Below the pieces are notes generated by a model, which saw nothing but the letters and a program-made list of their open reading frames with translations, ran no database searches and had not been told where the DNA came from. From the NCBI GenBank assembly GCA_001029755.1, contig CP011214.1, positions 711,258 to 775,257 on the forward strand: 64,000 nt of DNA, in the 5' to 3' direction. The position numbers and the translations under genes are program-made. Below are positions 36,724-63,944 of the stretch, piece by piece (the stretch's first letter is position 1; the number at the start of each line of letters is the position of its first letter). Origin of the DNA: Candidatus Woesebacteria bacterium GW2011_GWF1_31_35 (GTDB lineage Bacteria; Patescibacteriota; Microgenomatia; UBA8517).

Positions 36724-36726
36724 ATT

Positions 36727-47230: not shown

Positions 47231-47884
47231 TTATCGAGCACCCCTTCCAGAAATCATAACCCACGGAGTTTTAATAATAATTAAAAAATCAAAAAATAAA
47301 GATTTTTTTCTAGCATAAAACGCATCCATTTCAATTCTTTTATCAAAATTAACATCACTTCTTCCTTCAACCTGCCAATAACCAGTAATTCCAGGTTTTA
47401 CTTTTTGCATCTCTTTTACATATTTCTCAGTGCCAGGATATTTTTCCATCTGCTCATCTAATTCTTCTTTTAGATAGGGTCTAGGGCCAACTATACTCAT
47501 GTCTCCCATTAAAACATTAATGAGTTGTGGCATTTCGTCTATTGAATGTTTTCTAATAAATTTACCTACCTTTGTAACTCTCGGATCCTTTTTTGGTTTG
47601 TAACTACCTCCAGAATGTTTTTGAATATAGGCAATTTTATATTTAGGATGAGTTTTTTCTAAAATGTCTCCATACAGAATCATTGATCTAAATTTATAAA
47701 GTCTAAAGGTCTTTCCATTTTTCCCTAATCTTTTCATATGTGAATTGGTTTTTTCGACAAAAATAGATCCCTCAGAAGTAATTTTGATAGCTATGGCTGT
47801 AGCAATTATTATAGGAGAGAAGACAATAAGAAGTATTATTGAGGCGACTATATCTATTGTTCGTTTTATAATATCAAAAAACAT
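47231..47884 (-). CDS. polyprenyl-phosphate sugar phosphotransferase (bacterial sugar transferase, WbaP/WcaJ C-terminal-domain type)
   Basis: KRTIDIVASIILLIVFSPIIIATAIAIKITSEGSIFVEKTNSHMKRLGKNGKTFRLYKFRSM and DEMPQLINVLMGDMSIVGPRP are the family signatures. Confidence 0.85.
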   Translation of the reverse strand: MFFDIIKRTIDIVASIILLIVFSPIIIATAIAIKITSEGSIFVEKTNSHMKRLGKNGKTFRLYKFRSMILYGDILEKTHPKYKIAYIQKHSGGSYKPKKDPRVTKVGKFIRKHSIDEMPQLINVLMGDMSIVGPRPYLKEELDEQMEKYPGTEKYVKEMQKVKPGITGYWQVEGRSDVNFDKRIEMDAFYARKKSLFFDFLIIIKTPWVMISGRGAR

Positions 47885-47892
47885 AAGGCAAT

Positions 47893-49035
47893 TTAAAGAA
47901 GTTCTTTCCTTCCCTGATCCTTCAAGAGTTCGACAATTTTTTTGACGGATTGTGCATGGCTCTTAGAACATACAAGTAACGCTTCCTTAGTATCAACAAT
48001 TATTAAGTTATCAACATCAATTGCAGCTATTAATCTACCATTTGAGTGAATCAAAGCATCGGTTGTATCAATATTTATTACTTCTCCACCTTTCTCATCA
48101 CCCTTAATTACTACGTTTCCATCAACATCTTTTGGTAAATTCTTCCAAACCTCATTCCAATCTCCAATATCTGTCCAACCATAATCTGCAATTATCATAA
48201 AGAAATTTTTGGACTTTTCAGATATAGCATAATCGATCGAAATCTTTTCAAATTTCTTGTATTCCCTTTCAATAATCCCCTTTTCATCACTTTTACCCAA
48301 GTTTTCTTTTATAACCTCAATTCCTTGATAAAGTGTTTTTGCATAATTTTTAACTTCATCTAAAAATTTGTCTGCTCTCCAGACATAATGATTTGCGTTC
48401 CAAAAATAATCACCAGACTCTGTATATTTTTTAGCTATCTCAAGGGGTGGTTTTTCAACAAACTTATCCAATTTATATACATACCTTCCTTCAGATACTG
48501 CAACTTTTTCTCCTTTTTTTAGATGGCCCATTCCTGTATGCGGATACGTTGGCCTAATACCAATTGAAATTAAACAATTATTCTCAAAAGCATATTTACT
48601 AGCAGCAAACATTGTTTTTTCATAATTTAATTGAGGGCTCACTATATGATCAGAAGCAGCATTAATAATAACAGCCTCGGGATCTTTATTCAGTATATAA
48701 ATAGCTCCTAAAGCATGTGCCGCCGCACTATCTTTTCTTTCTGGCTCAACTAACACATTTTCTGTTGGAACTTTAGGTAGAAGCTTTTTAATCTCGTCAC
48801 CATATGGCTTGGAGGTAGTGACTACAAATATTTTATCCCAAGGTAAAAATTTACTTAATCTTTCACCTGTAATTTCAACTAAAGTTTTATTATCAAATAT
48901 CTTTAAAAATTGTTTTGGAGTCCTTTCAAGAGATTTTGGCCAGAGACGAGTTCCCCCACCCCCTGCTAGTATAAGCGCGTACAAGTGATCTTTGTAGGTT
49001 TTCTTTAAATCTTTCTTTTGAAAAATTTTTAGCAT
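47893..49035 (-). CDS. manC: mannose-1-phosphate guanylyltransferase-like NDP-sugar pyrophosphorylase
   Basis: LILAGGGGTRLWPKSLERTPKQFL is the nucleotidyltransferase G-loop typical of ManC/GMP. The ATG is at 49035, as the track start at 49041 is TTG. The first about 37 codons overlap the end of the upstream GT4 gene. Confidence 0.7.
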   Translation of the reverse strand: MLKIFQKKDLKKTYKDHLYALILAGGGGTRLWPKSLERTPKQFLKIFDNKTLVEITGERLSKFLPWDKIFVVTTSKPYGDEIKKLLPKVPTENVLVEPERKDSAAAHALGAIYILNKDPEAVIINAASDHIVSPQLNYEKTMFAASKYAFENNCLISIGIRPTYPHTGMGHLKKGEKVAVSEGRYVYKLDKFVEKPPLEIAKKYTESGDYFWNANHYVWRADKFLDEVKNYAKTLYQGIEVIKENLGKSDEKGIIEREYKKFEKISIDYAISEKSKNFFMIIADYGWTDIGDWNEVWKNLPKDVDGNVVIKGDEKGGEVINIDTTDALIHSNGRLIAAIDVDNLIIVDTKEALLVCSKSHAQSVKKIVELLKDQGRKELL

Positions 49036-50065
49036 TTTCAACTAGGTACTTATGATTAAAGCTTATTTTACTACATTTTGCAATTGCAGATGTCAAACTT
49101 TTAATATTTTGGTCCTCAAATAAAACCCCAGTCATGCCATCCACTACTGTATCTTTTGCTCCACCCCTATTGTATGCAATAACTGGGACACCAAAACTTT
49201 GAGCCTCAATTGAAGTCATACCAAAATCCTCTTCTTGAGACATAATTAATGCTTTAGCATTTTTATAGTACTCACACAATTCTTTGTCAGAAATATTTCT
49301 AACAAATTTAATATTATTTTTTGCTCTAAGCTTTAAATTATTAAATTCCAAACCATTTCCAACTATAACGAGAGGAAGTTTTAACTTATTAAATGTATCG
49401 ACAACTAAATCGACTTTTTTGTAAGTAACTAATCTACTTACAACAAGGTGATATTTTCCTTCTTTAAAATCTATCTTTTCTTCAAGATTTTTAGATAAAT
49501 TGACAGGTGGAAAAATTATTTGACTTATCTTTCCATAATAATTTTTTATTCTCCTTTGAACTTCAGTAGAAATTGCAATTATTTCATCTGGTTTATTACT
49601 TGCAATTTTGTCCCAATCTTTTAAATAATTAACAACTGGTTTAGAAAAAAATTTCAAGATTGGATTTTTAAAATACAAATTGTAATGACTCCAGAGATAT
49701 CGAGTGGGAGTCAAAAGATAACAAACATGAAGAGTGGCAGGTTTTGTAATAATTCCCTTAGCTGCTTCAGATGTAACTGATATGACTAAATCATATTTAC
49801 TAAAATCAAATGTCTCAAAGGCTAGAGGCATCAAGTAACCTATATATTCATGGTTACTTTTTGCAAAAGGAATATTTTGTAAAAAAGTAGTATAAATTTT
49901 TGGGAAGACTTTTGCCCAAGAAGCACGACTAGGATCATAAACAGCTGTATAAAGTGGAGCTCTTGGAAACATCTCATGAAGTGTTAAAAGTGCTCTTTCT
50001 GCTCCCCCCCATTTATTTACCCTATCATAAACAATTGCAACATTTTTGTTATCTAATAGATTCAT
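48926..50065 (-). CDS. glycosyltransferase family 4 (GT-B)
   Basis: The N-terminus is VAIVYDRVNKWGGAERAL and EDFGMTSIEAQSFGVPVIAYNRGGAKDTV is the E-x7-E-like C-domain motif. Confidence 0.8.
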   Translation of the reverse strand: MNLLDNKNVAIVYDRVNKWGGAERALLTLHEMFPRAPLYTAVYDPSRASWAKVFPKIYTTFLQNIPFAKSNHEYIGYLMPLAFETFDFSKYDLVISVTSEAAKGIITKPATLHVCYLLTPTRYLWSHYNLYFKNPILKFFSKPVVNYLKDWDKIASNKPDEIIAISTEVQRRIKNYYGKISQIIFPPVNLSKNLEEKIDFKEGKYHLVVSRLVTYKKVDLVVDTFNKLKLPLVIVGNGLEFNNLKLRAKNNIKFVRNISDKELCEYYKNAKALIMSQEEDFGMTSIEAQSFGVPVIAYNRGGAKDTVVDGMTGVLFEDQNIKSLTSAIAKCSKISFNHKYLVENAKNFSKERFKENLQRSLVRAYTSRGWGNSSLAKIS

Positions 50066-51134
50066 AAATTTTTATAGTTTCTAAAGTCGTTTTTTCCCAT
50101 GAATATTTTAAAATAAATTTCTGACCATCTTGAATCATTTGTAATCTTTTAAGAGAATTAATTTTTAAAGCTTCATTGATAGCATTAGCTATTGAATCTG
50201 AACTATTAGGGTCAAAATAAATTGCATTATTTTTATAAACTTCTTTGAATACAGGAATATTTGATGCTAAAAGTAATGTTCCTGAAGATAATGCTTCTAA
50301 ACCTTGAAACCCAAATCCTTCAATTAATGATGGATAAATAAATCCAACTGAATCTTGGTATAATTTTACAATTTCTAAGTCATCTAAAAACCCTAAAACT
50401 TTAACATATTTTTCTAATTTCTTTTCTTTAATAATATTAATAAGATTTTTACTAAAACTATTTTTAGAAGTACTTATTTTTAAGGTAACTTTAGAAAGTC
50501 CAATCGCATCAATTAATTTTGTTAAATTTTTATGTGGATAAGCATTTCCCACATAAACAAAATATTTTTTAGTTATACTTTGTAAATTAGGCTTCAAAAT
50601 TTTATAATCTAAACCTAGATAACTAACTTTAATTTTTTCCAAATCTAATTTAAAAAAATCATTAAGTTCATCTTTAACAGTCTCTGATGGAACAATAATC
50701 TTATTAGAATTAATTAAAGCATTTTTAAAAACAAATTTATAAACAAATCTTTTAATTAAATAGTAGATCGGATTAAGAGTAGTTGTTTCCAGGCCTTTAG
50801 ATTTATGCATTATCATGTCATGAATTGTTACTACGTAAGGCTTTGGAGTTAAAAGTGGGGCGTTAAAATGAAGGAAATGAGAAAGGTCTGGTTTTTCTTT
50901 AAATATTATAAATGGAATAGTAATCTGTTCTAAAAAACTATATGGTTTTAAGTCAACCAAAATCTTTTTAAAATTTTTGGGGAAACTTAACTCCTCAAAA
51001 TATTTTTTACGCAGTAAAACTGTATACTCATTGTTTTTATCAATTGAGGATAAATTATTTAACAAATTTATGGTATATCTACCTAAGCCACCATTTTCTA
51101 ATCCATAAAATCGACAGTCTAGGAGTATCTTCAT
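50049..51134 (-). CDS. glycosyltransferase family 4 (GT-B)
   Basis: MKILLDCRFYGLENGGLGRY and PSLIEGFGFQGLEALSSGT are the GT4 motifs. Confidence 0.8.
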   Translation of the reverse strand: MKILLDCRFYGLENGGLGRYTINLLNNLSSIDKNNEYTVLLRKKYFEELSFPKNFKKILVDLKPYSFLEQITIPFIIFKEKPDLSHFLHFNAPLLTPKPYVVTIHDMIMHKSKGLETTTLNPIYYLIKRFVYKFVFKNALINSNKIIVPSETVKDELNDFFKLDLEKIKVSYLGLDYKILKPNLQSITKKYFVYVGNAYPHKNLTKLIDAIGLSKVTLKISTSKNSFSKNLINIIKEKKLEKYVKVLGFLDDLEIVKLYQDSVGFIYPSLIEGFGFQGLEALSSGTLLLASNIPVFKEVYKNNAIYFDPNSSDSIANAINEALKINSLKRLQMIQDGQKFILKYSWEKTTLETIKIYESIR

Positions 51135-51146: not shown

Positions 51147-52022
51147 TTAAGAGGTTAGTCTTACTTTGATAAACCTTACAACTTTAAATAACTTAATTCC
51201 TAAAATAACAAAATAAGAAAATAAAAGTGGATAATTATTCCAGAGATTTTTTCTATAAAACCTTTCCATTGAAGCAACTCCTGCTAGACGAAGTTTCATT
51301 TTTTGTTTTGGATCAACTTTATGATTCCATTTTTTAACCTTACCTTTGGTTACACCTTTTAAATGTGTTATGTAAGTATCTGGATAATAAACAAGTTTAT
51401 ATCCAGCTTTATGTATTTGATAACAAAGATCGATATCTTCTCCATCAAAAAAATACTCTTCATCAAACCATCCAACCTTATCTAAAATTTTCTTCCATGT
51501 CAAAAAGAAAGCTCCTTGAATAGCATCAACTTCATGAGTTGCATTCTCTGGAATAGACTCATAATAATACTCTTTATTCATTTTTAAAATTAAATGACTA
51601 AATGAAATCCACGGAGTAGGAAATCTTCTTCTTATGTCTTTATCAATTTTTCCATTTTGTAAGACTAATTTACAAGTTACTGCACCAACATCAGTGTGTT
51701 CTTCTAAATATCTAACAGTTTTTAAAAATACATCTTTATGAACTACAGTATCAGGGTTTAAGAAAAGTACCATTTCACCATTGACTAAATTTTTAGCTCT
51801 ATTGTTTCCTTTGGAAAAACCACTATTAGGCCCTTCGGTTAATTTTACCCAAGGAAAATTTTTTCTAATCATATCTGGACCACCATCAGTTGAAGCGTTA
51901 TCAGAAACAATAACTTCCATAGATACTTCGTCCATATAAGTTTTTACAGATCTTAAACAATCTGCTAAAAGTTCTTTTGTATTGTAATTAAGAATTATTA
52001 CTGATAGCTTTGGTTTGTTCAT
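51147..52022 (-). CDS. glycosyltransferase family 2
   Basis: LSVIILNYNTKELLADCL is followed by VSDNASTDG, an LNPD DxD-like motif and QGAFFL. Confidence 0.8.
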   Translation of the reverse strand: MNKPKLSVIILNYNTKELLADCLRSVKTYMDEVSMEVIVSDNASTDGGPDMIRKNFPWVKLTEGPNSGFSKGNNRAKNLVNGEMVLFLNPDTVVHKDVFLKTVRYLEEHTDVGAVTCKLVLQNGKIDKDIRRRFPTPWISFSHLILKMNKEYYYESIPENATHEVDAIQGAFFLTWKKILDKVGWFDEEYFFDGEDIDLCYQIHKAGYKLVYYPDTYITHLKGVTKGKVKKWNHKVDPKQKMKLRLAGVASMERFYRKNLWNNYPLLFSYFVILGIKLFKVVRFIKVRLTS

Positions 52023-53199
52023 ATATTTTATCTAAGTATTCCCCCATTTTATACCAACTATATTTTTCTTCAACTAGTCTTCTTGCATTATTGGCAATTA
52101 TTTCTGCTAATTTTATATTTGATAGTATTTCAAGGGTAGCTTTAGCTATGTCCTCGGGCGTATCTCTTACAATAATATTAACGCCATCCCTAGCACCTAA
52201 CCCTTCTGCTCCAACTGAAGTAGTAATAAGTGGAAGTTTAGCCGCCATTGCACCAAAATGTTTAAGTCTAGTTCCGCCTGGACCCCTTAGAGGAGAAACA
52301 AATACTGAAGATTCATAATAAGCTTGTCTTATTCCGTCTTGATCATCTTCTTTTAAATTTCTAACAATAATATTTTTTGAAGCTTTAGAAATTATGTTTT
52401 CAGGAACATATTGGCCAACTATTAAAATCTTAGCTTTTGAATTTTTCTTTAACACAACTGGAAATACTTTCTCTAAAAGAAGTTCCGCAGCCTCAGCATT
52501 TTGTAACCATTTAAAATTCGCAACAAATAATATTTTTTGGTCTTTTTCATCCCAATTAGTTTTTATTTTAAAAAATGAAAGATTTACTCCATTAGGGACT
52601 AAATCAACAGAAAGATTTGAAACTAATTTAAGCATTTCCCCTTTATCAGCTTCTGATACTGCCACCACTCCATCAGCTTTTTTCCAAAAATTTGTTTCCC
52701 AAAACTTTAGTTTGGTTACATCAATTGAAAGAAGCCATTTTAAAAGTGGATTTTTTATACTTTCAACATAATGTTTATAAACTAAGTATTCAATTGTTTG
52801 TTCAACTAATAAAATTGGGATCTTCGTGTTTGGGATATGAGGCATTACATAAAAAGTTTCCGCATGAATTAAGTCATAATGATTTTTCTCTATTTCTTCT
52901 TTTACTGCATATTTTTCTTTTGGTGAAAGATTTCTTATAACCAAAAATGGATAGGGACCAAATCCTGTTAATAAAATGTTTCTTAAAGTCCAGGGAGACT
53001 TGGACCTTTTGAAGACTTTAATTTCTTTACAATATTTTTCTAATTCTTTGGTAAAACGTTTTTCTGAATCATCTTTAATTAAAGAAAAAAGAGTAATCTC
53101 ATGTTTTTTACTTAAATCTTTAATTAAATTGTAAGAACGAATTTGTCCTCCTGAAGAATCAGGAAAAGGTAGGTAGGGAGTAAGCATTAAAATTTTCAT
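51988..53199 (-). CDS. glycosyltransferase family 4 (GT-B)
   Basis: MKILMLTPYLPFPDSSGGQIRSYNL and a PLRGPGGTRLKHFGAMAAKLPLITT C-domain are present. Confidence 0.8.
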   Translation of the reverse strand: MKILMLTPYLPFPDSSGGQIRSYNLIKDLSKKHEITLFSLIKDDSEKRFTKELEKYCKEIKVFKRSKSPWTLRNILLTGFGPYPFLVIRNLSPKEKYAVKEEIEKNHYDLIHAETFYVMPHIPNTKIPILLVEQTIEYLVYKHYVESIKNPLLKWLLSIDVTKLKFWETNFWKKADGVVAVSEADKGEMLKLVSNLSVDLVPNGVNLSFFKIKTNWDEKDQKILFVANFKWLQNAEAAELLLEKVFPVVLKKNSKAKILIVGQYVPENIISKASKNIIVRNLKEDDQDGIRQAYYESSVFVSPLRGPGGTRLKHFGAMAAKLPLITTSVGAEGLGARDGVNIIVRDTPEDIAKATLEILSNIKLAEIIANNARRLVEEKYSWYKMGEYLDKIYEQTKAISNNS

Positions 53200-53206: not shown

Positions 53207-54631
53207 TTATTTATTTACTAATTCTTTATGTAAATCAAGAATTATGTATTTACTAGTTTTTTGTAATGTCACAAATCTTTTTTCAAAATCAGTTGTATCT
53301 TTTGAACCCAAATCGATCGAAACATAATAATCTGCTCCTCTTTCTATAATATTATCAATTGAAGCGTCAATTGCTGGCCAGCCTTTTCTGTTCATTTGAT
53401 ATAAAAATGCCGTATCTCCTGTATAGGGAGCAATTATTAAAGCGTCTTCAGGAAGTTTAGTATCAACAATTTTTCCCACCTCAATTAATTCAGGGTGATT
53501 TATTTGATAAAAGGGCTTGATTTTATCCCAACCAATTATCATCATAATAAGTATTGATAAAAATAGAATTATTTTAGACTTTTTCCAAAGCCAAATTGAT
53601 CCCAAAGACAGCATAAGTGAAATTGCAGGTATAGTCATAATCTGATAATAATCATGTCTAACATTAGCTGTAGCTACTACTGTTACATAAAGAAACATTC
53701 CTAAAATAAAATGTAGAGAAAATTTGTTTTTAAATTTAGCAATTATTCCTCCAAAAAATGGAACTAATCCCCAAGTACCTAATATCAATATCCCCAGTCT
53801 CTCTCCAAATATCCATCTAAAAAATGCTGGGTGAAACCTTATTCTATCTCCATTAAAAGCCCACTTAAAAAATGGGATTCCTTCTGGAAAATTTGATATC
53901 CAAAAACGCCATAATAAAAGAGGTAAAAATGTAATTAAAGAAAATATTACTAACTTTTTAAATAATTTTACTTTCCACCAAAAAATTGGGATAAATGGAA
54001 TGAAATAAAAAATAAAGAATGGTTTAATAAGTAAACTTAATGAAAAAAGAATACCAGATAGAATTAAATTTAAATAATCTTCTTTTTTAGAAAAACAAAT
54101 TAAAAAATACATTCCAGAAAGAGCAAATGAAACACCTAATGATTCAGGAAGTACTGTCCGCGTAAAAAATATGTTATAGGGAATGATTAAATAAAAAAAC
54201 GATGCAATCAAACCAATTCTTGATGAATAAATTTTTTTGCCTATTAAAAAGAGGAAGCAAGCTGAGATTAGGGCGAATAATACTGATAATAATCTTCCCC
54301 AGGTTTCTAAATTAAAAAAACCTACAAAAGAGAATGCAGTTGCATGAACTGCATTATAAATCGGGAACTCAACCATTCTCAAGCCTTTTGGATTATCGAT
54401 TCCACTTTGTATACTACTTATGTCGTCATAAGTAGGGTAAAGCATGTTTATACCATTTTTAATAAAATTACGAGATACCGCAGAAGTATCCGATTGTCGC
54501 CAAGAATGCCAGTCAGCAATTGGATTATTGATTTTATAAAGCCTTATAATTAAGCCTAAAAGAACTATTAATGAAAGAATAAAATACTCATTTTTCACGA
54601 GAGTCTTTAAACGTATAAATATATTGTTCAT
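53207..54631 (-). CDS. GT-C fold membrane glycosyltransferase (GT39/GT83 ArnT/PMT-like)
   Basis: About 11 TM helices are present and the first extracytoplasmic loop carries ADWHSWRQSDTSAVSRNF, resembling the loop-1 motif of ArnT/PMT_2 proteins. A soluble C-terminal domain is also present. Confidence 0.5.
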   Translation of the reverse strand: MNNIFIRLKTLVKNEYFILSLIVLLGLIIRLYKINNPIADWHSWRQSDTSAVSRNFIKNGINMLYPTYDDISSIQSGIDNPKGLRMVEFPIYNAVHATAFSFVGFFNLETWGRLLSVLFALISACFLFLIGKKIYSSRIGLIASFFYLIIPYNIFFTRTVLPESLGVSFALSGMYFLICFSKKEDYLNLILSGILFSLSLLIKPFFIFYFIPFIPIFWWKVKLFKKLVIFSLITFLPLLLWRFWISNFPEGIPFFKWAFNGDRIRFHPAFFRWIFGERLGILILGTWGLVPFFGGIIAKFKNKFSLHFILGMFLYVTVVATANVRHDYYQIMTIPAISLMLSLGSIWLWKKSKIILFLSILIMMIIGWDKIKPFYQINHPELIEVGKIVDTKLPEDALIIAPYTGDTAFLYQMNRKGWPAIDASIDNIIERGADYYVSIDLGSKDTTDFEKRFVTLQKTSKYIILDLHKELVNK

Positions 54632-55974: not shown

Positions 55975-56875
55975 AAATCTTGGCTATATCTGGCTTTGAT
56001 AAACCATAGAATAAAATTCTAATAAATGCCCCAAATTTTAGGGTAAAAGTTAATATTGGTAATTGCCAATTCGGCATATGTTTTTTGTAAAAAAGTTTTA
56101 AATTTTGCATTTCCATTGTCATTGCTTTTTCACTACCTGTCGTAATCATTCCATAGTGTAAAGTCTTCCATTTTGGTAGATACCAAACTTCCCAACCAAC
56201 CTTAACAAATCTATATGCAAGTTCTACTTCTTCAACATATAAAAAGAAATCTTCATCAAAAAATCCTGCCATATCCATTGCTTCTCTTCGCATAAAGAAA
56301 AATGCTCCTGTAACCCAATCTTGTTTATGAATCTTTTTAAAGTAATCTTCGTTTGTGTGAAAAAATGAGAATCCATGCATCGGGTGATATGGTTTAATTA
56401 TTTTATCTATATATGGAATATCATCCAAAAACGTCATCCAAGCAATAACTCTTGAAAGAGTTGGAAAATATCCACCTGAACCTTGATATGTTTTCTCATC
56501 AGGATTTACCAAAGCGCAAGAAGATAGACCTACTTTAGGATGCAAATCCATCCAAGCAATCATTTCTTTAAATATATTTTTGTTTAATATCTTAGTATCA
56601 TCGTTTAAAAGAAGAATGTATTTTCCCTTGGCAATTTTCATGCCCATATTATTGTTTTCACCAAAACCTCCATTTACTTCTCTTCTTATTATTTTTACCT
56701 CAGGAAATTTTACTTTTATTTGTTCTCCCACTTTATCTTGTGAAGCATTATCAACAATAATAATTTCGTTTTTAATTCCTTTTAAGGCTAAATATGCGGT
56801 TTTTAAACAATCAGTCAAATAATCAATCTTTGAAGATATTATTACAATAGATAACTGTATTTCATTTTTTGACAT
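55949..56875 (-). CDS. glycosyltransferase family 2
   Basis: LSIVIISSKIDYLTDCL is followed by VDNASQD and the DxD motif LLLNDDT. Confidence 0.8.
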   Translation of the reverse strand: MSKNEIQLSIVIISSKIDYLTDCLKTAYLALKGIKNEIIIVDNASQDKVGEQIKVKFPEVKIIRREVNGGFGENNNMGMKIAKGKYILLLNDDTKILNKNIFKEMIAWMDLHPKVGLSSCALVNPDEKTYQGSGGYFPTLSRVIAWMTFLDDIPYIDKIIKPYHPMHGFSFFHTNEDYFKKIHKQDWVTGAFFFMRREAMDMAGFFDEDFFLYVEEVELAYRFVKVGWEVWYLPKWKTLHYGMITTGSEKAMTMEMQNLKLFYKKHMPNWQLPILTFTLKFGAFIRILFYGLSKPDIAKIYAKILKNI

Positions 56876-57374
56876 AGCTGTATTCTCTCACTAAAACAAA
56901 TGTAGTCGCAAGAGTTAAACCTAATACTAAAAATCTAATCCAAATTGAACTTGGAACATACCTTATAATTATTTTTTGTCTCCAGTTTCTACCTTCAATA
57001 ATTATAGTATCTTTTTTAAGTTTTGGTTCAAAACCGTTAATATAAATTGATTCTCTCAAAGGATGGACAATTTCTTCTAAGAAGGTGCTCATTGTTTGAT
57101 CTCTTATAATAGTTTGTGATTCTTCAGGTGGGTAATTTAATCTTGGAGTATAAATATTAAAACCTTTATTGAATTCTTTTTTGTAATGATTAATAACTTC
57201 TTCTCTGGTCAAATTTGTAAAATAAGCTCGTCTTAATGAAGTTTCAGAATCGGCAGGTTCTTTTGATCGTAAAGAATCAGTAGGAGGCTCTGGAAATTCC
57301 GGGTTGGGTAAATTTACATAGACAAAAAGTAAAACACTAGAAATAAAAAATAAAATAACTAATAATTTCTTCAT
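56862..57374 (-). CDS. hypothetical bitopic membrane protein
   Basis: TM helices are present at both the N- and C-terminus and there is no motif. Confidence 0.3.
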   Translation of the reverse strand: MKKLLVILFFISSVLLFVYVNLPNPEFPEPPTDSLRSKEPADSETSLRRAYFTNLTREEVINHYKKEFNKGFNIYTPRLNYPPEESQTIIRDQTMSTFLEEIVHPLRESIYINGFEPKLKKDTIIIEGRNWRQKIIIRYVPSSIWIRFLVLGLTLATTFVLVREYSYVKK

Positions 57375-57977
57375 TTATTGGAATAATCTAGCACGACCAA
57401 GTTTATAATTTAAATCTTTAATTGGTCTTTCACCAATTAATTTTGCAGGAACTCCGCCTACAATTGTAAAATCCTCTACATCTTTAGTAACCACAGCTCC
57501 TCCTGCGATGACTGCCCCTTTACCAATCTTTACTCCAGGCATTATGGTTACTCTTGGACCTATGAATACATAGTCCCCAATTTCAACAGGAGCTAAGATA
57601 GCTGAAAAATCAACTTTTCCTAAATCATGTTCTGAATTATAAATCATTACAGAGGAAGCTATATCAACATGATTTCCTATTGTTAGTTTATCTCTACCAT
57701 CTAAAAATGCATGATCCCCAATAATTGTGTCTTCTCCTATTGTTATATTTTTAGGATCAAAGAAACTTGCCCACATATGAATAGTTGATCCTTTTCCTAT
57801 TTTTATTCCAAAAATTCTATATTTTAAATTTCTAACAGAATGAGAAGGGAAATGACCAATCCAGCGAAGCAACATAAGTGTGAAGTCTAACCAATAATTG
57901 CTAAGTCTATCTACTATTTTAAGTATAGCCTCATTAAATTTTAATTCTTTTCCGTTTTTATCTTTTAAAAATGTCAT
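57375..57977 (-). CDS. hexapeptide-repeat (left-handed beta-helix) acetyltransferase
   Basis: [22 protein letters not shown] and [49 protein letters not shown] are typical [LIV]-G-x4 hexapeptide repeats. Confidence 0.8.
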
Positions 57978-57985
57978 ATTTAAAA

Positions 57986-59104
57986 TTATTTACTTTTTAA
58001 AATTATTTCTAATGTTTTCTTGCTACAGACTTCCCAGGAGAACTTTTTAGCCTGGGCAAGACCTTTTTCAACTAACTCATTATATTCTAATTCACTCATA
58101 TTTAATACTTTTTCAATACCTTCTCTAATACTTTTCACACTATCAGGATCAATTAATATGCCTGCTTCTCCTACAACTTCAGACAATGACCCTACATTAG
58201 AAGCAACAACTGGCACTCCTAAGGCCATGCTAGTGACAATATCTAATCCGAACCCTTCCCAAAAAGAAGGAAGAATAAAGACTTTAGCACCTTTAATAAG
58301 TGCTGGTTTGTCTTCTTCTGGAAAAAAATCAGTAAAAATAACTCTGTCTTCTAATTTTAATTTCTTAACTCTTTCAAAAATCTCTCCATACATCCAACCT
58401 TTCTTGCCAGCGATGACTAACTTGATATTTTTAGCAATTTCAGAAAAAGCATCTATCAATCCAATAATATTTTTTGATGGTTTAAGGGTTCCAAGATAAA
58501 GAATATAGTCATCAACTATGGAGTATCTATTTTTGATTCGTCGTACAAGGTCATCAGAAATTTCGATTTTAGATTTATCTCTCTCGTATCCTAATAGCGT
58601 AACTGTAGTTTTTTTTGATGCAAAAGGATAATGTCGTACAATATCCTTTTTAGTACTTTCTGATATAGTAAGTATCTGTTTGGAGACCAAAATACTAATA
58701 GCACTCCAGCACTTTAACTGCCAAAGTACCTTTTTTTCAAATTGTCCCGAAAACTTGAGGTAACCTAGATCCATTATTGAACATACGCGAGGAATTGTCA
58801 ATAATGGGGGTGTGTAATGACTTGGAGAGAATAAAACTTCAATTTTTTCAGGATTTCTAAAAAGGTAAGGGGTTAGTTTTGTAATTATCCAGAGTCCTCC
58901 TCCCGGAATTACCTTTATTTTAAAATTTTCTCTTTCTTTTGGAAGATCTTCTAAAGGTACATTTTTAAGATAAACTATGAGATTATGTTCATAAGGCTTA
59001 TTTTGAGTTAATTTGTATAATCCCCAAATCATTTCAAATGCATATTTATTAACCCCTACTCTATTTTTTACATTTGCTTCATTTCCATCAATTCCTATTA
59101 TCAT
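57986..59104 (-). CDS. glycosyltransferase family 4 (GT-B)
   Basis: [21 protein letters not shown] is followed by [42 protein letters not shown]. Confidence 0.8.
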
Positions 59105-59113
59105 TATAATAAT

Positions 59114-59395
59114 TTAAACAAATTTTGCTCTATGCGACAAGATATTTCCAAGAGTCATAAGGCTTTCTGCATTATTTTTTAAATCTCTCTTCGCAACAAG
59201 GTAAGATCTTAAGAAAAAATCCCAGGTTTTTTGAAATCTAGAATTTACTCCTCCCACTTTACCTATATAACTATCAGTATTCTGTATAAAAATGTTAATT
59301 TTTCTATTATTCCTGTCAAAATCATCGGCAACCCAATTACCGATACGATTTAGGTTCATAGCTATATCCATTACTAGTTGTTTTTGTTCACTCAT
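59114..59395 (-). CDS. hypothetical protein (93 aa), second gene of a coupled pair
   Basis: ORF track entry with a 4-nt overlap to the upstream 110-aa ORF and no recognisable motif. Confidence 0.3.
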   Translation of the reverse strand: MSEQKQLVMDIAMNLNRIGNWVADDFDRNNRKINIFIQNTDSYIGKVGGVNSRFQKTWDFFLRSYLVAKRDLKNNAESLMTLGNILSHRAKFV

Positions 59396-59724
59396 TTTAA
59401 AATTTTATTAACAATCATATTAAATTTTCCTCTTATTTCTTTCAAAAGTATGTCACGGCTAGGATTTTCTTGATTTGGTCTTAAATTTATCATAGAATTA
59501 TAATCAATTTCACCTGTCTCTAAATCTAAACCACCTCCCCATAAATTAACTTGAATAGATCCATCTTTTAGAAGTTCTTGTTCCTCGTCTACATGTCTAT
59601 CCGCTCCAGCACATAAAATCTCTTTTTCTATATCAACTACCACTTTCACATATCCTTGAAAATGTTCTCTGATCTCCAAAAGTTCATCTTTAGTAGCTTT
59701 CGTAGTCAAAATCAGCACCTTCAT
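59392..59724 (-). CDS. hypothetical protein (110 aa), first gene of a coupled pair
   Basis: ORF track entry with no recognisable motif. Confidence 0.3.
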   Translation of the reverse strand: MKVLILTTKATKDELLEIREHFQGYVKVVVDIEKEILCAGADRHVDEEQELLKDGSIQVNLWGGGLDLETGEIDYNSMINLRPNQENPSRDILLKEIRGKFNMIVNKILK

Positions 59725-59774
59725 ATTTAGATTGTATCATTGACTAAAAATTAAGTCAGTAATAATATGAATTC

Positions 59775-60044
59775 ATGACAAAGAAAGATAAAAATGAAGT
59801 TGTTGAATTATTCAATCAAGGTATGTCTGAAATAATTCTACCTGTTCTAGATGAGATGAACAAAAAGATGGCCACAAAAGAAGATATTAAATCCATTAGA
59901 AGTGAGATGGCCACAAAAGAAGATATTAAGGATGTTGGAGCACAATTAGATTCAATTGAAAGAAAGGTTGAAGCACAACAACTTAGGTCAGATCGTCATG
60001 GAAAAGATATAGAAACCCTCAAAAAGGCCTGTGCATTTGCCTAA
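59775..60044 (+). CDS. hypothetical coiled-coil protein carrying an internal 13-aa duplication (MATKEDIK...)
   Basis: It is a plus-strand ORF inside the minus-strand GT block. The protein is heptad-rich and was produced by a 39-bp tandem duplication. Confidence 0.35.
   Translation: MTKKDKNEVVELFNQGMSEIILPVLDEMNKKMATKEDIKSIRSEMATKEDIKDVGAQLDSIERKVEAQQLRSDRHGKDIETLKKACAFA
59868..59945 (+). repeat. 39-bp tandem duplication (atggccacaaaagaagatattaa...) within the small coiled-coil ORF
   Basis: The first 23 nt of each unit are identical and the units diverge after that. Confidence 0.45.
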
Positions 60045-60046
60045 TT

Positions 60047-61147
60047 TTAAATAATTTCTTTATAAACTTTTAGTGTTTCTTCTGCTGTATGTTGCCAAGA
60101 GAAGTCTTTTATTCTTTTTAGACCTTTATCTATAAGTGTTTTAGGTTTTTCAAGACTTTCTGTAATTCCATCTGCAATTGAATTTACGTCATAAGGATCA
60201 ACCAATATTGCTGCTCCTCCTGAAACTTCAGGCATACTAGAAACATTTGAGGCAACAACAGGAACACAACAATTAAAAGCGTCAAGTATTGGTATGCCAA
60301 ATCCTTCGTAAATAGAGGCAAATACTAAAGCTTTAGAACCTGTTAAAAGAGCTTCTAGATCTGAATCGTCTACATGTCCTAAAAATCTTACCCCTCTTTC
60401 ATCCAATAACTTAGAACCTATCATCTCACCCACTACAATCAATTTTAAGTTCCTTCCAGCTTTAGAAAGGTGATATCCTTCAATAATTCTCTTTACATTC
60501 TTTCTAGAGTTAACTCCAATCGTAATAATATAGTTTTCATGAATATTATATTTCTTTTTCACTGCTTCTACTTCTTTTTCACTAGCCTTAAAAAGATTTG
60601 GAGCTTCTGGAATTACTCTTATCTTTTCTTCATCAAATCCTAAACTAATTAGATCACCTTTAGTACAAAGACTGGGAACAATAATTCTTTTTGATTCCTT
60701 AGCTACCCACTTTAATCTTTCTCTATGTGTTTCAACTATTACCCTTGGTGTTAGTTTTGGAAACTTAATTGGAATTAAATCATGAATTGTTGTTACTTTT
60801 GAAATTTTAGTTGGAGGCTCTGCCCAATCAGAAGTATGGATTAAGTCTACTTCCCCTATTAATTTTTCAATCGGTAAAATATGTAGTTTATTCCAAATCA
60901 AGTTAGCCAACGTTGGAGGAATTGGGAATACTTTAACATTTAAATTACTTCCTAATTTGTTAATCTTTTGTTCTAATTCTTTTTTCCTTCTTAATGATCC
61001 TCCATACAACAAATACTCATTTTCTTTACCAGCACCGCTGGCCAAGCTTTGCTTATTAATTTTTAATAAATTCCTAACCAGGTTTTCTCTATAATGAGAT
61101 ACACCAGTTCCATAAATAATTTGAGATAAATCAATTGCAATTTTCAT
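60047..61147 (-). CDS. glycosyltransferase family 4 (GT-B)
   Basis: MKIAIDLSQIIYGTGVSHY is followed by [42 protein letters not shown]. Confidence 0.8.
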   Translation of the reverse strand: MKIAIDLSQIIYGTGVSHYRENLVRNLLKINKQSLASGAGKENEYLLYGGSLRRKKELEQKINKLGSNLNVKVFPIPPTLANLIWNKLHILPIEKLIGEVDLIHTSDWAEPPTKISKVTTIHDLIPIKFPKLTPRVIVETHRERLKWVAKESKRIIVPSLCTKGDLISLGFDEEKIRVIPEAPNLFKASEKEVEAVKKKYNIHENYIITIGVNSRKNVKRIIEGYHLSKAGRNLKLIVVGEMIGSKLLDERGVRFLGHVDDSDLEALLTGSKALVFASIYEGFGIPILDAFNCCVPVVASNVSSMPEVSGGAAILVDPYDVNSIADGITESLEKPKTLIDKGLKRIKDFSWQHTAEETLKVYKEII

Positions 61148-61176
61148 AAATTATTATTTTTTTATTTAAAGTATTA

Positions 61177-62535
61177 CTACTCTTTAATAAGATATTCTAC
61201 TTCACCCACACTATTAAAGCTAAACGTTTTACTTTTTTTATATCCATAACCACTAAGCTCTTTTCTAACAATTTGGTTTGGATCAGTTAAATCTTCAAGA
61301 TAATTAAAATAATAAAGTCCTTTGTAATTTTGCAAGAGTTTTGAAACTTTAGTTTTTGTTAACTCAGAATTAACTGAAATTGAATCTGCGGCTGAAATAA
61401 CTTTATTTCCCTTAGTTGAATACCACTTATATGGTGCAAAAGGTTCAGGATAATTTAAAACTATTGCTTCATTTGTTTTTAAGTTTGATTCGACAAAATA
61501 AACCGCTTCTTTCCAGTTTTCCCTTTGTTGAGTTTTATCAGTTACATAAATCCCCCATCCTATTAAATTTACTAAAAGCATTAATGTAATTAATAATTTG
61601 CTTTTTGTTTTAGAAACTAAAATATAAAAAGCTGGTACAACAAATAAAAATCTAAAATAGATAAATGCAGGAAATACAAATGAGACTACAAAACCTATTG
61701 CGGGTGGAACTAGAAACCAAAGCCAATAGATTAAATTTTCTTTCTTAAAACTTTTCTTTAAAGAAAGAATAAATGGAATAGAAGAAAGCAAAATAAGTCC
61801 ATAATAAGTTTGTTTTGGATAAAAAGAAATTCTTCCCAAAATTAATTTATTCCAAAAAAGAATCAATTGTTTTAAAGTAGCTCCACCTGCAACATTTTGC
61901 CAAGCTGGTAGTGTTTGTAATAATCTACTTCCACTTTCTGATTGAAACATAAATACAGGTTCCCAAAAAAGCCCTAATAAAATTAGTGGAATATGAGAAA
62001 GTAAAAACATTTTCCACCAAGCTAAATTTTTTTTAGTTAAAATCGCATATATCCAAAAGACAGGAAGTATAAATACTGGTACATAATCTGTAAAAATTAA
62101 GGCACAAATTGTTAAAGAAAGTAGTAAAAATTTATTTTTAATAAAAAGATATACGGCAAGAATAGATAAAAATCCTGCCATTACATACATTCTTGCTTCC
62201 TGAGAATAATAAATATGAAGTGGAGCTGTTGCAATTAATAGTGTAGCCATTTTACTTTTGGTTAATTTATAAACTAAATAAATAGTTCCAAGACCAAAAA
62301 GAACTGATAAACTTCTTAAACCAATTTCAGAATACCCAAAATAGTTTGTCCAAAGTTTTAAAGTTAAATAATAAAGGGGTGGATGATTATCAGCTAAAGA
62401 AAACTTAGTAAAAATATCAAAATAACTCATATTCTTAACTACCAATGCCCCAATTGCTTCATCAAGCCAAAGAGATTGATTAATTGATACAAGTCTTAAA
62501 ACTGTACTTAAAATAAGTATTAAAAATATCGCCAT
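61177..62535 (-). CDS. GT-C fold membrane glycosyltransferase (GT39/ArnT/PMT_2-like)
   Basis: About 11 TM helices are present. Loop 1 carries SLWLDEAIGALV plus ADNHPPLYY, the DE/acidic motif and aromatic-Pro stretch typical of ArnT/PMT-type GT-C enzymes. A C-terminal soluble domain is present. Confidence 0.55.
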   Translation of the reverse strand: MAIFLILILSTVLRLVSINQSLWLDEAIGALVVKNMSYFDIFTKFSLADNHPPLYYLTLKLWTNYFGYSEIGLRSLSVLFGLGTIYLVYKLTKSKMATLLIATAPLHIYYSQEARMYVMAGFLSILAVYLFIKNKFLLLSLTICALIFTDYVPVFILPVFWIYAILTKKNLAWWKMFLLSHIPLILLGLFWEPVFMFQSESGSRLLQTLPAWQNVAGGATLKQLILFWNKLILGRISFYPKQTYYGLILLSSIPFILSLKKSFKKENLIYWLWFLVPPAIGFVVSFVFPAFIYFRFLFVVPAFYILVSKTKSKLLITLMLLVNLIGWGIYVTDKTQQRENWKEAVYFVESNLKTNEAIVLNYPEPFAPYKWYSTKGNKVISAADSISVNSELTKTKVSKLLQNYKGLYYFNYLEDLTDPNQIVRKELSGYGYKKSKTFSFNSVGEVEYLIKE

Positions 62536-62543
62536 ACCAACTT

Positions 62544-63944
62544 ATGATATCATCATTCTATATGAGATTCCTCACCGTAGGACTTTTTATAATTCTTCTT
62601 ATTTTTACAAGATTTTTTAACCTTGAAAAAACTGCTAGATTTATTTGGGACGAATCAAGCGATCTTGTGAATATCAGAAGAATTTATATCCAAAAAGACA
62701 TAACTTTAATAGGTCCAATTTCTGAAGATGGAAACAAAGTTTTTGGATCCTTAACATATTACATGTTAATTCCATTTGCAGTAATTGGAAACTTTGATCC
62801 GGCAAGTACAGCTTACGGTGCAGCCTTTTGGGGAGTTATCACGGGAATACTATTTTTGATAATTAGTTACAAACTAAATAAAAAATCTGAAGTTTTAACT
62901 TTACTTTTAATAATTTTTTGGTCAGCAATTCTAATTCCGTCTCGTTGGGCATGGAATCCTAACTTTATGCCTTTTTGGTCAGCTCTTTCAATTATTATGC
63001 TTCTTTCTAAAAATAAATTTAAATACATTCTATCAGGATTATTTTTAGGACTTACTATTCACCACCATTATCTTGGAGCATTTACTACCTTTGGACTTTG
63101 GTTAGTAATTTTAAAAGATTCTATAAGAAGTAAAAATTACAAAGACATAATAAATTTTTCATTTGGGTCATTTTTTGCAATTTCACCATTCATTCTTTTT
63201 GATCTAACTCATAAACCTGATTTATTTTTATCAAGAATTCTTTATTTTAATAATCTAGATAGTAATTTAGGAATTTTAGGTACCTTCTCAAAAATTGGAA
63301 ACTATGTGATTTCAAATAATTATTTAGTATTATTTTCAATTATTTTTATTGTTCCTTTAGTTTGGATAGATATTAAAAAAAGATCTTCCTCTTTAAATTA
63401 TTTATTTATTTTTATCTTTTCTGGTTTACTTTTAACTTTAACTAAAAATTATTACGATCATTACCTATTAGCTTCTCTACCATTTTTATTTACTTATTTA
63501 ATTTACAAACGAGAAGGAATAGGAAATCTAATTTCAAAAATACTTATATTTATAATCATTATTTCTTCTTTAATTAATTTTCCTAAAATAATAAATAATG
63601 TAACTTGGGAAACAAATATTCCTGCAATTAGAAATATTGCCCAAATTATGGGAGACGAGATAAAACTTAAGGACTTAAAAAATGTAAACACAGTAGTACT
63701 TCAAAGTCCTGATCCAAATACTTATGGCAGAAGATACAGAGATCTTTTATTAATTAAAGGGATTAATTTAAAAAATAAGAATGAATATGAAATTTCAGAT
63801 CACCTTTTTGTAATTACATACAAACCTTATGAGGAAATTTTAAAAGACAGCGCATATGAAATAAAGATATTTAAAAAAGGTAAACTAGAAAATTCTTGGG
63901 ATATACCAAATTCATCATGGAAAGTTTTTCTTTTGGGTAAATAA
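62544..63944 (+). CDS. GT-C-like polytopic membrane protein (possible third ArnT/PMT-like glycosyltransferase)
   Basis: It is divergent from 61177..62535. About 11 TM helices and an early-loop WDESSD acidic motif are present, along with a soluble C-terminal domain. Confidence 0.4.
   Translation: MISSFYMRFLTVGLFIILLIFTRFFNLEKTARFIWDESSDLVNIRRIYIQKDITLIGPISEDGNKVFGSLTYYMLIPFAVIGNFDPASTAYGAAFWGVITGILFLIISYKLNKKSEVLTLLLIIFWSAILIPSRWAWNPNFMPFWSALSIIMLLSKNKFKYILSGLFLGLTIHHHYLGAFTTFGLWLVILKDSIRSKNYKDIINFSFGSFFAISPFILFDLTHKPDLFLSRILYFNNLDSNLGILGTFSKIGNYVISNNYLVLFSIIFIVPLVWIDIKKRSSSLNYLFIFIFSGLLLTLTKNYYDHYLLASLPFLFTYLIYKREGIGNLISKILIFIIIISSLINFPKIINNVTWETNIPAIRNIAQIMGDEIKLKDLKNVNTVVLQSPDPNTYGRRYRDLLLIKGINLKNKNEYEISDHLFVITYKPYEEILKDSAYEIKIFKKGKLENSWDIPNSSWKVFLLGK

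Follow-up and report, generated by a model that had tools for sequence, protein, structure and literature searches.

On balance, the glycan genes at the end of the window analysed here (the whole stretch of DNA, 64,000 nucleotides) appear to belong to a cell-envelope glycan cluster of ~28 kb that combines a Wzx/Wzy-type lipid-linked pathway with extracytoplasmic decoration by GT-C enzymes. The host is a tiny-genome groundwater member of the Woesebacteria (CPR), and its cluster is a genuine, rather ordinary and GT-C-rich set of genes for assembling a cell-surface sugar polymer, another case of the known Wzx/Wzy and GT-C types of glycan assembly. The organism makes peptidoglycan, as indicated by a dcw cluster 4 kb from the glycan cluster.

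Positions 47231-63944 are tiled by 18 ORFs, and the outermost boundaries (the priming transferase gene, PGT, ends at 47231 and that of protein C at 63944) coincide exactly with the limits originally predicted. Over most of the locus neighbouring genes overlap or lie at most 35 bp apart. The expectation that they are mostly co-directional is correct, with 16 of 18 ORFs on the minus strand; the locus is nonetheless not a single transcription unit, because the gene of protein C and one small ORF run in the plus direction. Promoter and terminator scans of the locus performed no better than shuffled sequences. Neither is this a compositional island, as had been proposed, given that the GC content (0.26-0.31) is the same as in the remainder of the window and that gene order is shared with distant relatives. 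The 17 kb first attributed to the cluster fall short of its extent, which reaches from the DUF4012 gene (45257), probably its beginning, to a Wzx flippase of its own past the window. The original gene list leaves out this adjoining upstream gene and the truncation of the cluster by the window end, as well as the small ORFs 56862-57374, 59114-59395, 59392-59724 (DUF5674) and 59775-60044 (plus strand).

Table 1. Coordinates in the window, strand and supporting evidence for the features of the glycan cluster.
Feature	Coordinates	Strand	Evidence
DUF4012 protein, 646 aa, one N-terminal TM	45257..47197	-	PF13196 68 bits; hydrophobic segment residues 26-61
Small monotopic polyprenyl-phosphate sugar-1-phosphate transferase (priming PGT), 217 aa	47231..47884	-	Bac_transf 200.9 bits
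ManC-type mannose-1-phosphate guanylyltransferase	47893..49041	-	NTP_transferase + ManC_GMP_beta-helix
GT4 glycosyltransferase, cytoplasmic, nucleotide-sugar dependent	48926..50065	-	Glycos_transf_1 101.8 bits
GT4 glycosyltransferase	50049..51134	-	Glycos_transf_1 85.6 bits, Glyco_transf_4 45 bits
GT2 glycosyltransferase, 291 aa	51147..52022	-	Glyco_tranf_2_3 75.6 bits; C-terminal hydrophobic segment 264-285
GT4 glycosyltransferase	51988..53199	-	Glyco_trans_1_4 68.3 bits; TIGR03087 147.8 bits, below its cut-off
GT-C enzyme A, 474 aa, PMT_2 family	53207..54631	-	PMT_2 (PF13231) 42 bits vs 26.1 gathering threshold
Wzy_C-family membrane protein, 448 aa, multi-TM	54628..55974	-	Wzy_C 36.5 bits vs 31.7 cut-off
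GT2 glycosyltransferase, 308 aa	55949..56875	-	Glycos_transf_2 57.3 bits; same place in L009
Conserved 170-aa protein (u170)	56862..57374	-	TM segments 1-25 and 142-163, exposed domain ~115 aa
Left-handed beta-helix (LbH) O-acetyltransferase, WcaF-like	57375..57977	-	Hexapep 62.3 bits; WcaF-family NF007797 E=2.5e-29
GT4 glycosyltransferase	57986..59104	-	Glycos_transf_1 119.4 bits
Variable insert, three small ORFs	59114..60044	mixed	93 aa (-), DUF5674 110 aa (-), 89-aa coiled-coil-like (+)
GT4 glycosyltransferase	60047..61147	-	Glycos_transf_1 87 bits, Glyco_transf_4 45.2 bits
GT-C enzyme B, 452 aa, divergent PMT_2 relative	61177..62535	-	PF13231 on nearly all homologues
GT-C enzyme C, 466 aa	62544..63944	+	AF2 model + profile links to PMT_2 neighbourhood
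GT2, 280 aa (GT2-280), cut by window end	63950..64000 = 3' end	-	Glycos_transf_2 104.9 bits

The gene content originally listed was confirmed (Table 1): Pfam and NCBIfam searches identified the PGT, ManC, seven soluble-type transferases (five of GT4, two of GT2), the acetyltransferase and the Wzy_C protein, and the three large membrane proteins are present as well. The priming transferase of a Wzx/Wzy system is present in the PGT, for which the EPS_sugtrans and WbaP models (E=1e-74 and 4e-69) cover the catalytic domain alone and WbaP (1.6e-42) and PglC (6e-31) are the top PDB matches. ManC matches TIGR01479 (E=1.9e-80) over profile positions 2-352 of 467 and is without a PMI domain; its gene starts with TTG and shares ~110 nt with the 3' end of the GT4 gene upstream of it. 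For the GT4 at 48926..50065 all NCBIfam models fell below their cut-offs, and no GT4 or GT2 of the cluster reached an NCBIfam cut-off that names a sugar. Because no gene of the cluster reaches a curated equivalog cut-off, sugar, linkage and acceptor are not established. As to the prediction of a mannose-containing glycan, the presence of ManC agrees with it and nothing else points to mannose.

The three large membrane proteins A, B and C have the GT-C fold, as predicted, and are not Wzy polymerases. Family, profile and structural comparisons agree on this: A by its PMT_2 match, B and C by AF2 models with pLDDT of 95.7 and 92.8, respectively. The acidic residues directly after TM1 are conserved in all three families, and the three motifs first noticed there are all present, each conserved within its family. 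In A the motif ADWHSWRQSDT follows TM1 (WRQSDT being residues 44-49), and D40, W41-Q46, D48 and T49 are invariant among 120 sequences of the family. In B, SLWLDEAIG occupies residues 21-29 after TM1, with W23 and D25 invariant and E26 conserved in at least 90%, while in C the motif WDESSD (residues 35-40, after TM1) has D36 invariant and W35, E37, S38 and D40 conserved in at least 90%. The loop holds an Asp-Glu pair in B (D25-E26) and in C (D36-E37), whereas in A neither D40 nor D48 has a Glu beside it. Judging from the fold and the N-terminal K/R residues, this loop would be extracytoplasmic.

The three enzymes differ in how closely they can be tied to named families. Protein A has 3579 homologues, most of them carrying PF13231 and some named GT39. 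The match of B itself to PMT_2 is below threshold (E=0.062, 13.9 bits vs 26.1); its family aligns to that of A at 94% in hhalign, and the protein ends in a C-terminal alpha/beta domain. Protein C, whose gene is divergently oriented to that of B with start codons 8 bp apart, gave no significant family match in Pfam and NCBIfam searches, and so is outside Pfam PMT and PMT_2 altogether. Most records in which its family occurs carry Patescibacteria names, for the greater part from Microgenomates lineages. Searches with the family profile extend to a sister group that retains both Asp residues of the motif and has PMT_2 matches in 48 of its 51 members. Paralogue E, itself above the PMT_2 threshold (29.6 bits), also matches the profile, at 98.9%. 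By these sequence relationships, the sister group and paralogue E would place C beside PMT_2.

The assignment of these enzymes to GT39 or GT83, made in the original prediction, is not supported. Searches of A, B and C with PF02366 and PF16192 gave no match even at E up to 10, the ArnT NCBIfam model gave none at E up to 1, and no arnA-D genes were found in the window. For ArnT (GT83) identity, fold similarity is the sole link, and identity as a GT39 PMT is not supported, as the three proteins miss the PF02366 threshold and lack PMT_4TMC. PF02366 does occur in some homologues of A and of B. The cluster enzymes share with ArnT and PMT a GT-C_A-type fold, the acidic loop motif that follows TM1 and a soluble domain at the C terminus, and ArnT is the top Foldseek match of C (E=8.9e-5, TM-score 0.59). 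They differ from them in sequence (8-14% identity), in reaching no model threshold, and in the absence of an arn operon and of PMT_4TMC or MIR domains. Since the scores of Pmt4 in the structural comparison are much the same as those of ArnT, ALG12 and AglB, the GT-C fold gives no pointer to a protein acceptor, and nothing specific supports the protein O-mannosylation or ArnT function that had been suggested.

The Wzy_C protein, which gave no match in a PDB sequence search, may act as polymerase, ligase or O-oligosaccharyltransferase, as its family match fits all three; the Wzy_C family includes O-oligosaccharyltransferases. Its conserved neighbour, the 170-aa protein, matched nothing in Pfam and NCBIfam, is 52% identical to the product of the syntenic gene in locus L003 and is also found in L004 and L009. 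This two-TM protein is a candidate chain-length, attachment or export component, and no window ORF scanned matched the Wzz, PCP or LCP families. The lack of an LCP ligase in the window, like the breadth of the Wzy_C family, would suit protein O-glycosylation, in which the GT-Cs would put single sugars from polyprenyl-phosphate sugars straight onto Ser/Thr residues in secreted, S-layer or pilin proteins in a PMT-like or PgfM/PgtC-like manner, or the Wzy_C protein, as a PglL/WsaB-type O-oligosaccharyltransferase, would transfer the completed lipid-linked glycan to surface proteins. In Gram-positive bacteria, GT-A/GT-C pairs indeed glycosylate the Ser/Thr-rich regions of membrane proteins (PMC12041528). 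We consider such a function unlikely here: besides the missing PMT signatures and the acceptor-neutral fold described above, the cluster holds no obvious gene for a Ser/Thr-rich target, and six GT-C paralogues together with at least eight soluble glycosyltransferases suggest a complex glycan instead of a single-sugar modification.

The count of six GT-Cs includes proteins encoded past the window. In scaffold L002, identical to the window over 11457 bp (0 mismatches), the cluster runs at least ~9.5-10 kb past the window end and encodes GT2-280, E, a GT4, F, G, a GT2, AsnB, Wzx and a methyltransferase. Three GT-C enzymes is thus an undercount: E, F and, probably, G are encoded immediately beyond the window end, and a further one, D, is in a second locus at 1361-7878. 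No MOP-family Wzx is encoded inside 47231-63944; that of the cluster is found ~8-9 kb past the window end (L002 19641-20945, Polysacc_synt + Polysacc_synt_3), and no GtrA-type small flippase was found. The second locus, once thought to supply the flippase, is not needed, given that the cluster runs on to its own; it is 40 kb away, with dcw and housekeeping genes between, and its Wzx flippase (2988-4211) scores 229 bits. GT2-280 has C-terminal TM helices (hydrophobic stretch at residues 223-275), and in L003 and L009 the C gene is directly followed by an orthologue with 59-61% identity and the same hydrophobic tail. Its similarity to DPM synthase, ArnC and GtrB is of a generic GT2 kind, no better than that of unrelated GT2s, and it is a candidate polyprenyl-phosphate sugar synthase.

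The gene order of the cluster is conserved in other Microgenomates. The succession GT4-A-Wzy_C-u170-LbH-GT4-GT4-B, followed by the divergent C, GT2-280 and a PMT_2 gene, is kept at 49-51% protein identity, with the Wzy_C gene syntenic in L003, L004 and L009, and C-family genes are within GT/Wzx clusters at 7 of 9 loci examined. The small-ORF insert (59114..60044), of which DUF5674 (93.6 bits) is the one ORF with a family match, is missing from these three syntenic loci and is probably outside the pathway. It is very unlikely that the GT-Cs are independent modules that decorate polymers made elsewhere (teichoic-acid-like, peptidoglycan-linked) and are merely sited in a variable surface-glycan region: C-family genes do occur outside glycan clusters in other genomes (L006 and L010), C is on the opposite strand and gene content past the conserved core varies between genomes, but the interleaving of A between GT4 and Wzy_C and of B after two GT4s persists at ~50% identity, in a locus of tightly packed genes.

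The cluster is most economically read as a lipid-linked pathway to which GT-Cs add extracytoplasmic steps, and we infer its order of steps, donor lipids, sugars and acceptor as follows. At the cytoplasmic face, the small PGT would start the pathway by transferring a sugar-1-phosphate to polyprenyl phosphate, the GT4 and GT2 enzymes would lengthen the glycan from nucleotide sugars, including GDP-mannose from ManC, and the WcaF-like enzyme would O-acetylate it. The Wzx-type MOP flippase would carry the lipid-linked oligosaccharide outward, where the Wzy_C protein may polymerise it or ligate it to an acceptor, perhaps helped by the 170-aa neighbour. At the outer face, A, B and C together with E, F and G would add further residues from putative polyprenyl-phosphate monosaccharides, probably made by the membrane-anchored GT2-280 beside C. 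As the acceptor, a heteropolysaccharide associated with the wall or the membrane seems to us likelier than a protein.

Among established systems, the Gram-positive multi-component systems CsbB/GtcA/YfhO, GtlA/GtlB, GacI/J/K/L (in which GacK is a Wzx-type flippase) and CsdAB/CD/EF (PMC8035078) resemble the cluster in placing a GT-C beside a membrane-anchored GT2/GT-A within a cell-wall polysaccharide cluster, in the availability of a Wzx-type flippase and in the catalytic acidic motif of an extramembrane loop. They differ in that their GT-C is single, against six here, that the cluster's GT-Cs are near PMT_2 and not the YfhO or GtrII families, that no GtrA-type flippase accompanies them, and that the GT2 is a candidate polyprenyl-phosphate sugar synthase. 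The mycobacterial and corynebacterial GT-C set (PimE, MptA/B, Emb, AftA-D, Ppm1) is alike in that many GT-Cs would act serially outside on a single glycan, with GT4 mannosyltransferases in the cytoplasm and GDP-mannose being supplied. Its enzymes show no detectable orthology to those of the cluster, which are much smaller (410-475 aa) and accompany initiation by a PGT, Wzx and Wzy_C. A lipoglycan of the LM/LAM type, in which PimA/PimB-like GT4s would mannosylate a glycolipid from GDP-mannose and PimE/MptA/Emb-like GT-Cs would extend it outside from polyprenyl-phosphate sugars, is given little credence: ManC with many GT4s and GT-Cs is the same enzyme mix, and PimE, AftA, AftB, AftD and EmbA are among the structural matches, but these actinobacterial GT-Cs rank below Pmt4, ALG12 and ArnT, models for PimA and PimB gave no match, and the PGT, Wzx and Wzy_C point to an undecaprenyl-diphosphate-linked repeat unit rather than a phosphatidylinositol anchor. 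From the dolichol-linked ALG pathway of eukaryotes and archaea the locus differs in having no STT3/PglB-type oligosaccharyltransferase, and the likeness is at the level of fold only (10-13% identity).

A bolder version of the Wzx/Wzy and GT-C pathway, which we regard as doubtful, is that the glycan is mostly built outside the membrane of this ultra-small CPR cell by at least six small GT-Cs working in series on polyprenyl-phosphate sugars, that the C family has a novel acceptor specificity and that the product is a surface structure for host attachment. If true, assembly outside would be the bacterial counterpart of what ALG3/9/12 do on the luminal side, or of the way mycobacteria synthesise mannan and arabinan, the Pfam-orphan C family would provide an acceptor specificity unseen in characterised GT-C families, and the cluster would make the structure by which these cells attach to host cells.

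Among Wzx/Wzy-dependent heteropolysaccharide loci, a close parallel is the EPS cluster of Bifidobacterium longum 105-A, where a DUF4012 gene adjoins the priming glycosyltransferase (PMC5412050) and a run of GT4/GT2 genes, an acetyltransferase, Wzx and a Wzy_C protein are likewise found. The present cluster departs from it in the interleaved GT-C genes, in the flippase ~8-9 kb past the reported end and in that no Wzz/PCP or tyrosine kinase was detected. DUF4012 proteins are over-represented in CPR and Gram-positive bacteria (PMC6744442), and the DUF4012 protein here is probably an auxiliary envelope or polysaccharide protein, likely encoded by the first gene of the cluster.

The three membrane proteins A, B, and C of the glycan cluster at 47231-63944 had been called GT-C enzymes, and the call is borne out by the PMT_2 (PF13231) score of A, by the homologues of B and its alignment with A, and by confident models with fold matches for B and C (Table). 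B matches PMT_2 merely at E=0.062, and C has no PMT-type or significant match in Pfam or NCBIfam. B has 2560 homologues, almost all carrying PF13231 and some named GT39, and its family aligns with that of A at a probability of 94% in hhalign. PDB sequence searches with the single sequences of A, B, and C and with profiles of the B and C families gave no match and, for this reason, a comparison of folds was required. AlphaFold models of B and C, built on 115-120 homologues, gave Z-scores from 24.4 down to 10.3 for B, followed by 7.2 for the first unrelated protein, and from 20.3 down to 8.3 for C, followed by 6.5; in Foldseek, the top match of C was ArnT (E=8.9e-5, TM-score 0.59). Both models have TM1, a loop with short helices and the conserved acidic motif, and a polytopic core, and end in an alpha/beta domain of about 100 residues. 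A family HMM scan of all window ORFs revealed no close paralogues of B or C, and a literature search on GT-C, GT39, or ArnT in CPR returned nothing specific.

The NCBIfam scan for sugar specificity placed none of the GT2, GT4, and GT-C proteins at the cut-off of any model, and the sole evidence for mannose is ManC. The proposed assignment to GT39/GT83 and the proposed mannosylation are not demonstrable.

Features of the window and of the scaffold that continues it (window positions unless marked L002)
Feature	Position (strand)	Length	Family and remarks
Ig-like protein	644-1390		Glucodextranase_B/Big_13
Second glycan locus	1361-7878
Second locus: Wzy_C protein		357 aa
Second locus: GT2 ORF		195 aa	Fragment-like
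Second locus: Wzx flippase			Polysacc_synt_3, 229 bits
Second locus: further GT2
Second locus: D		380 aa	Multi-TM, PMT-like; PF02366 (PMT) 21.2 bits, just below cut-off of 22.7
Second locus: GT4		283 aa	N-terminal half only
Second locus: SAM methyltransferase
Kelch-repeat, peptidase C39-like protein	7863-10016	717 aa
dcw cluster, MraZ to MurG	24446-41306
Bro-N domain gene	30800-31642
MurC-MurB fusion	31639-33774	711 aa
CofD-like gene	33771-34775
Mur ligase-nucleotidyl transferase fusion	34768-36723	651 aa
PIG-L/LmbE-family deacetylase	43794-44462		BshB-like E=7e-25, under its cut-off
DUF4012 gene	45257-47197
PGT (priming transferase)	47231-47884	217 aa	Bac_transf 200.9 bits; best solved relatives WbaP and PglC
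ManC-type guanylyltransferase			Pfam/NCBIfam; isomerase domain absent
Five GT4 and two GT2 transferases			Pfam
A	53207-54631 (-)		PMT_2 membrane protein, 42 bits vs cut-off of 26.1; D40, W41-Q46, D48, T49 invariant in family
Wzy_C protein			Pfam, 36.5 bits vs cut-off of 31.7
170-aa protein	56862-57374	170 aa	TM segment at each end; no family assignment
Hexapeptide (LbH) acetyltransferase			WcaF-like per NCBIfam
Insert	59114-60044		93 aa; DUF5674, 110 aa; coiled-coil-like, 89 aa (+)
B	61177-62535 (-)		W23, D25 invariant in family, E26 at least 90%; model pLDDT 95.7, pTM 0.93
C	62544-63944 (+)		D36 invariant in family, W35, E37, S38, D40 at least 90%; model pLDDT 92.8, pTM 0.91
GT2-280, 1st past C	63950-64000 (final 51 bp)	280 aa	GT2; hydrophobic C-terminal tail
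E, 2nd past C		422 aa	PMT_2, 29.6 bits, above threshold
GT4, 3rd		310 aa
F, 4th		419 aa	PMT_2, 38 bits
G, 5th		413 aa	Multi-TM, no Pfam match; BLASTP to F E=4e-6
GT2, 6th		278 aa
AsnB-type glutamine amidotransferase, 7th	L002 17806-21401, with 9th		Opposite strand
Wzx/MOP flippase, 8th		434 aa
SAM methyltransferase, 9th

A word-indexed search found only 198 relatives of C, none annotated as PMT_2, and the named ones are labeled as Patescibacteria, Woesebacteria, or Daviesbacteria. An exhaustive search of 1.84 billion representatives with the C-family profile gave 3456 matches at E<=1e-3 and 259 at E<=1e-30. The core family comprises about 60 clusters; beyond it, at 140-200 bits, comes a sister group that matches over the full length. 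Of 51 members sampled from that group, 48 match PMT_2 and 11 match PMT, and its consensus, GDQGRD, retains the two Asp residues of WDESSD. E, encoded past the window end, matches the C-family profile with 98.9% probability, and a BLASTP match stands at E=7e-12. Given that the sister group is mostly PMT_2 and that E matches both PMT_2 and the C profile, C can be placed as a divergent offshoot of the PMT_2 neighborhood, and its family is a branch that current Pfam/NCBIfam models miss. Among species-representative genomes, many records with C relatives are named Woese-, Davies-, Shapiro-, Levy-, Ames-, Collier-, Pace-, or Roizmanbacteria or Patescibacteria group, and about half of the C-family genome records are titled (uncultured) Gammaproteobacteria or Pseudomonadales (L012, L015-L017, L020-L029, and others). 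The mean GC of these, at 0.36, is as low as that of the remaining records (0.37), which suggests that the titles may be MAG mislabels. The isolate name of one of them contains 'PATE'.

The cluster itself is tiled by 18 ORFs, most of which either overlap a neighbor or are separated from it by no more than 35 bp. Pfam confirmed every item of the gene list in the original prediction, and the three motifs quoted there (SLWLDEAIG, WRQSDT, and WDESSD) are all present; four small ORFs had been missed, namely the 170-aa protein and the three ORFs of the insert. The ManC ORF, which starts with TTG or else with the ATG of codon 3, shares an unusually long stretch of about 110 nt (48926-49041) with the 3' end of the upstream GT4 gene; its true start can lie no later than residue 21, the first residue of the GGxGxR motif. 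The idea of a single transcription unit was not sustained, given that ORFs lie on both strands (16 of 18 on the minus strand); in a promoter and terminator scan, counts equaled those of shuffled controls, which is uninformative.

Proteins encoded in Candidatus Woesebacteria bacterium RIFOXYB1/C1_FULL_31 MAGs match A and B at 100% identity, which puts the genome in the CPR/Patescibacteria, and a 252-kb ENA scaffold (L002) shows 0 mismatches to window 52544-64000 over 11457 bp. With its continuation past C, and with the DUF4012 gene abutting PGT upstream, the unit spans about 28 kb and holds six GT-C-like genes (A, B, C, E, F, and G) and its own flippase, rather than the 17 kb and three GT-C enzymes reported before. 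DUF4012 also adjoins the priming transferase gene in a Bifidobacterium longum EPS cluster (PMC5412050), and the family is enriched in CPR and Gram-positives (PMC6744442). The description as an island did not hold: GC is low, from 0.24 to 0.33, in the window without a compositional break at the locus, and a horizontal island is rejected on this uniformity together with conserved synteny. The AsnB-type and methyltransferase genes within the extended cluster also lie near a C homologue in another locus (L008), a hint of amidated or methylated sugars. Two genes upstream of the cluster, the PIG-L/LmbE-family deacetylase could act on a GlcNAc-containing intermediate.

Around C homologues of 49-51% identity the same gene arrangement is found, in the order GT4, A-like PMT_2, Wzy_C, 170-aa protein, LbH, GT4, GT4, B-like PMT_2, divergent C, convergent GT2-280, and PMT_2 genes. 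The 170-aa protein always adjoins the Wzy_C gene, shares 52% identity with the syntenic protein of L003, and could serve as a small partner in chain-length control or acceptor binding. The counterparts of GT2-280 are 59-61% identical and keep the TM tail. The start codons of the divergent B and C are just 8 bp apart (62535-62544), so the promoter of each must lie inside the other gene, and this tight pairing is kept in L003, L004, and L009 (25-40 bp). The ORFs at 59114-60044, which interrupt the glycan cluster, are missing from the syntenic loci and therefore form a variable insert. More distant C homologues (40-44% identity) occur in other GT2/GT4/Wzx clusters, of which some carry three PMT/PMT_2 genes in tandem, and two sit outside glycan clusters. 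Several GT-C paralogues in a compact genome had been considered notable; they are found again in the related loci that were sampled, and this genome is therefore not special in having them.

The component set fits Wzx/Wzy assembly together with GT-C decoration, two established schemes. A polyprenyl-diphosphate-linked unit would be assembled in the Wzx/Wzy manner, and the GT-C enzymes would add sugars extracytoplasmically from polyprenyl-phosphate sugars. Such addition outside the membrane by GT-C enzymes would resemble the multi-component transmembrane glycosylation of Gram-positive bacteria, where the lipid-sugar can be transported by a flippase of the Wzx type (PMC8035078). What the analysis shows directly is the family or fold of every component and the conservation of gene order; we infer which sugars and which donor synthase are involved, in what order the steps run, and what serves as the acceptor. 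The Wzy_C protein may be a polymerase, a ligase, or an O-oligosaccharyltransferase, functions between which its family does not discriminate. GT2-280, as a candidate Ppm1/GtrB/ArnC enzyme, showed generic N-terminal GT2 similarity only, with chondroitin synthase scoring higher; its resemblance to DPM synthase, ArnC, or GtrB is no greater than to unrelated GT2s. A hydropathy scan found no GtrA-type flippase, and no Wzz/PCP or LCP ligase was found among the window ORFs scanned. Protein O-glycosylation by the cluster enzymes is possible because streptococcal GT-A/GT-C pairs glycosylate Ser/Thr-rich regions (PMC12041528). An LM/LAM-like lipoglycan pathway is also possible, as are independent modules that are merely co-located. 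Lipid A modification of the ArnT type is rejected, given that the window has no arn genes, no ArnT model matches, and the envelope gene set there is peptidoglycan-only.

Assembly of the Wzx/Wzy type with GT-C decoration leaves the current understanding of glycan assembly unchallenged, and the novelty is modest: the kind of system is known, and what is new is a GT-C subfamily unseen by Pfam/NCBIfam and, for the Wzy_C protein, a conserved partner of 170 aa. That subfamily has a bearing on the CAZyme counts of these genomes. A life attached to other cells is assumed for CPR/Patescibacteria and, to our knowledge, next to nothing has been established about their surface chemistry. The cluster provides a concrete set of conserved genes for a surface glycan in Woesebacteria, consisting of PGT, soluble GTs, flippase, Wzy_C, the 170-aa partner, and six GT-C.

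The second glycan locus is real, and the role given to it in completing the pathway is superfluous, given that it lies 40 kb off and the cluster has its own flippase. Gene decay may account for its truncated-looking GT2 and GT4. The Kelch/C39-like and Ig-like proteins beside it are probably located at the surface or secreted. Housekeeping genes (FtsA, FtsZ, IleRS, RodA, ParB, and others) make up the middle of the window, which includes a full dcw cluster, with two fusion genes and with Bro-N and CofD-like genes embedded in it.
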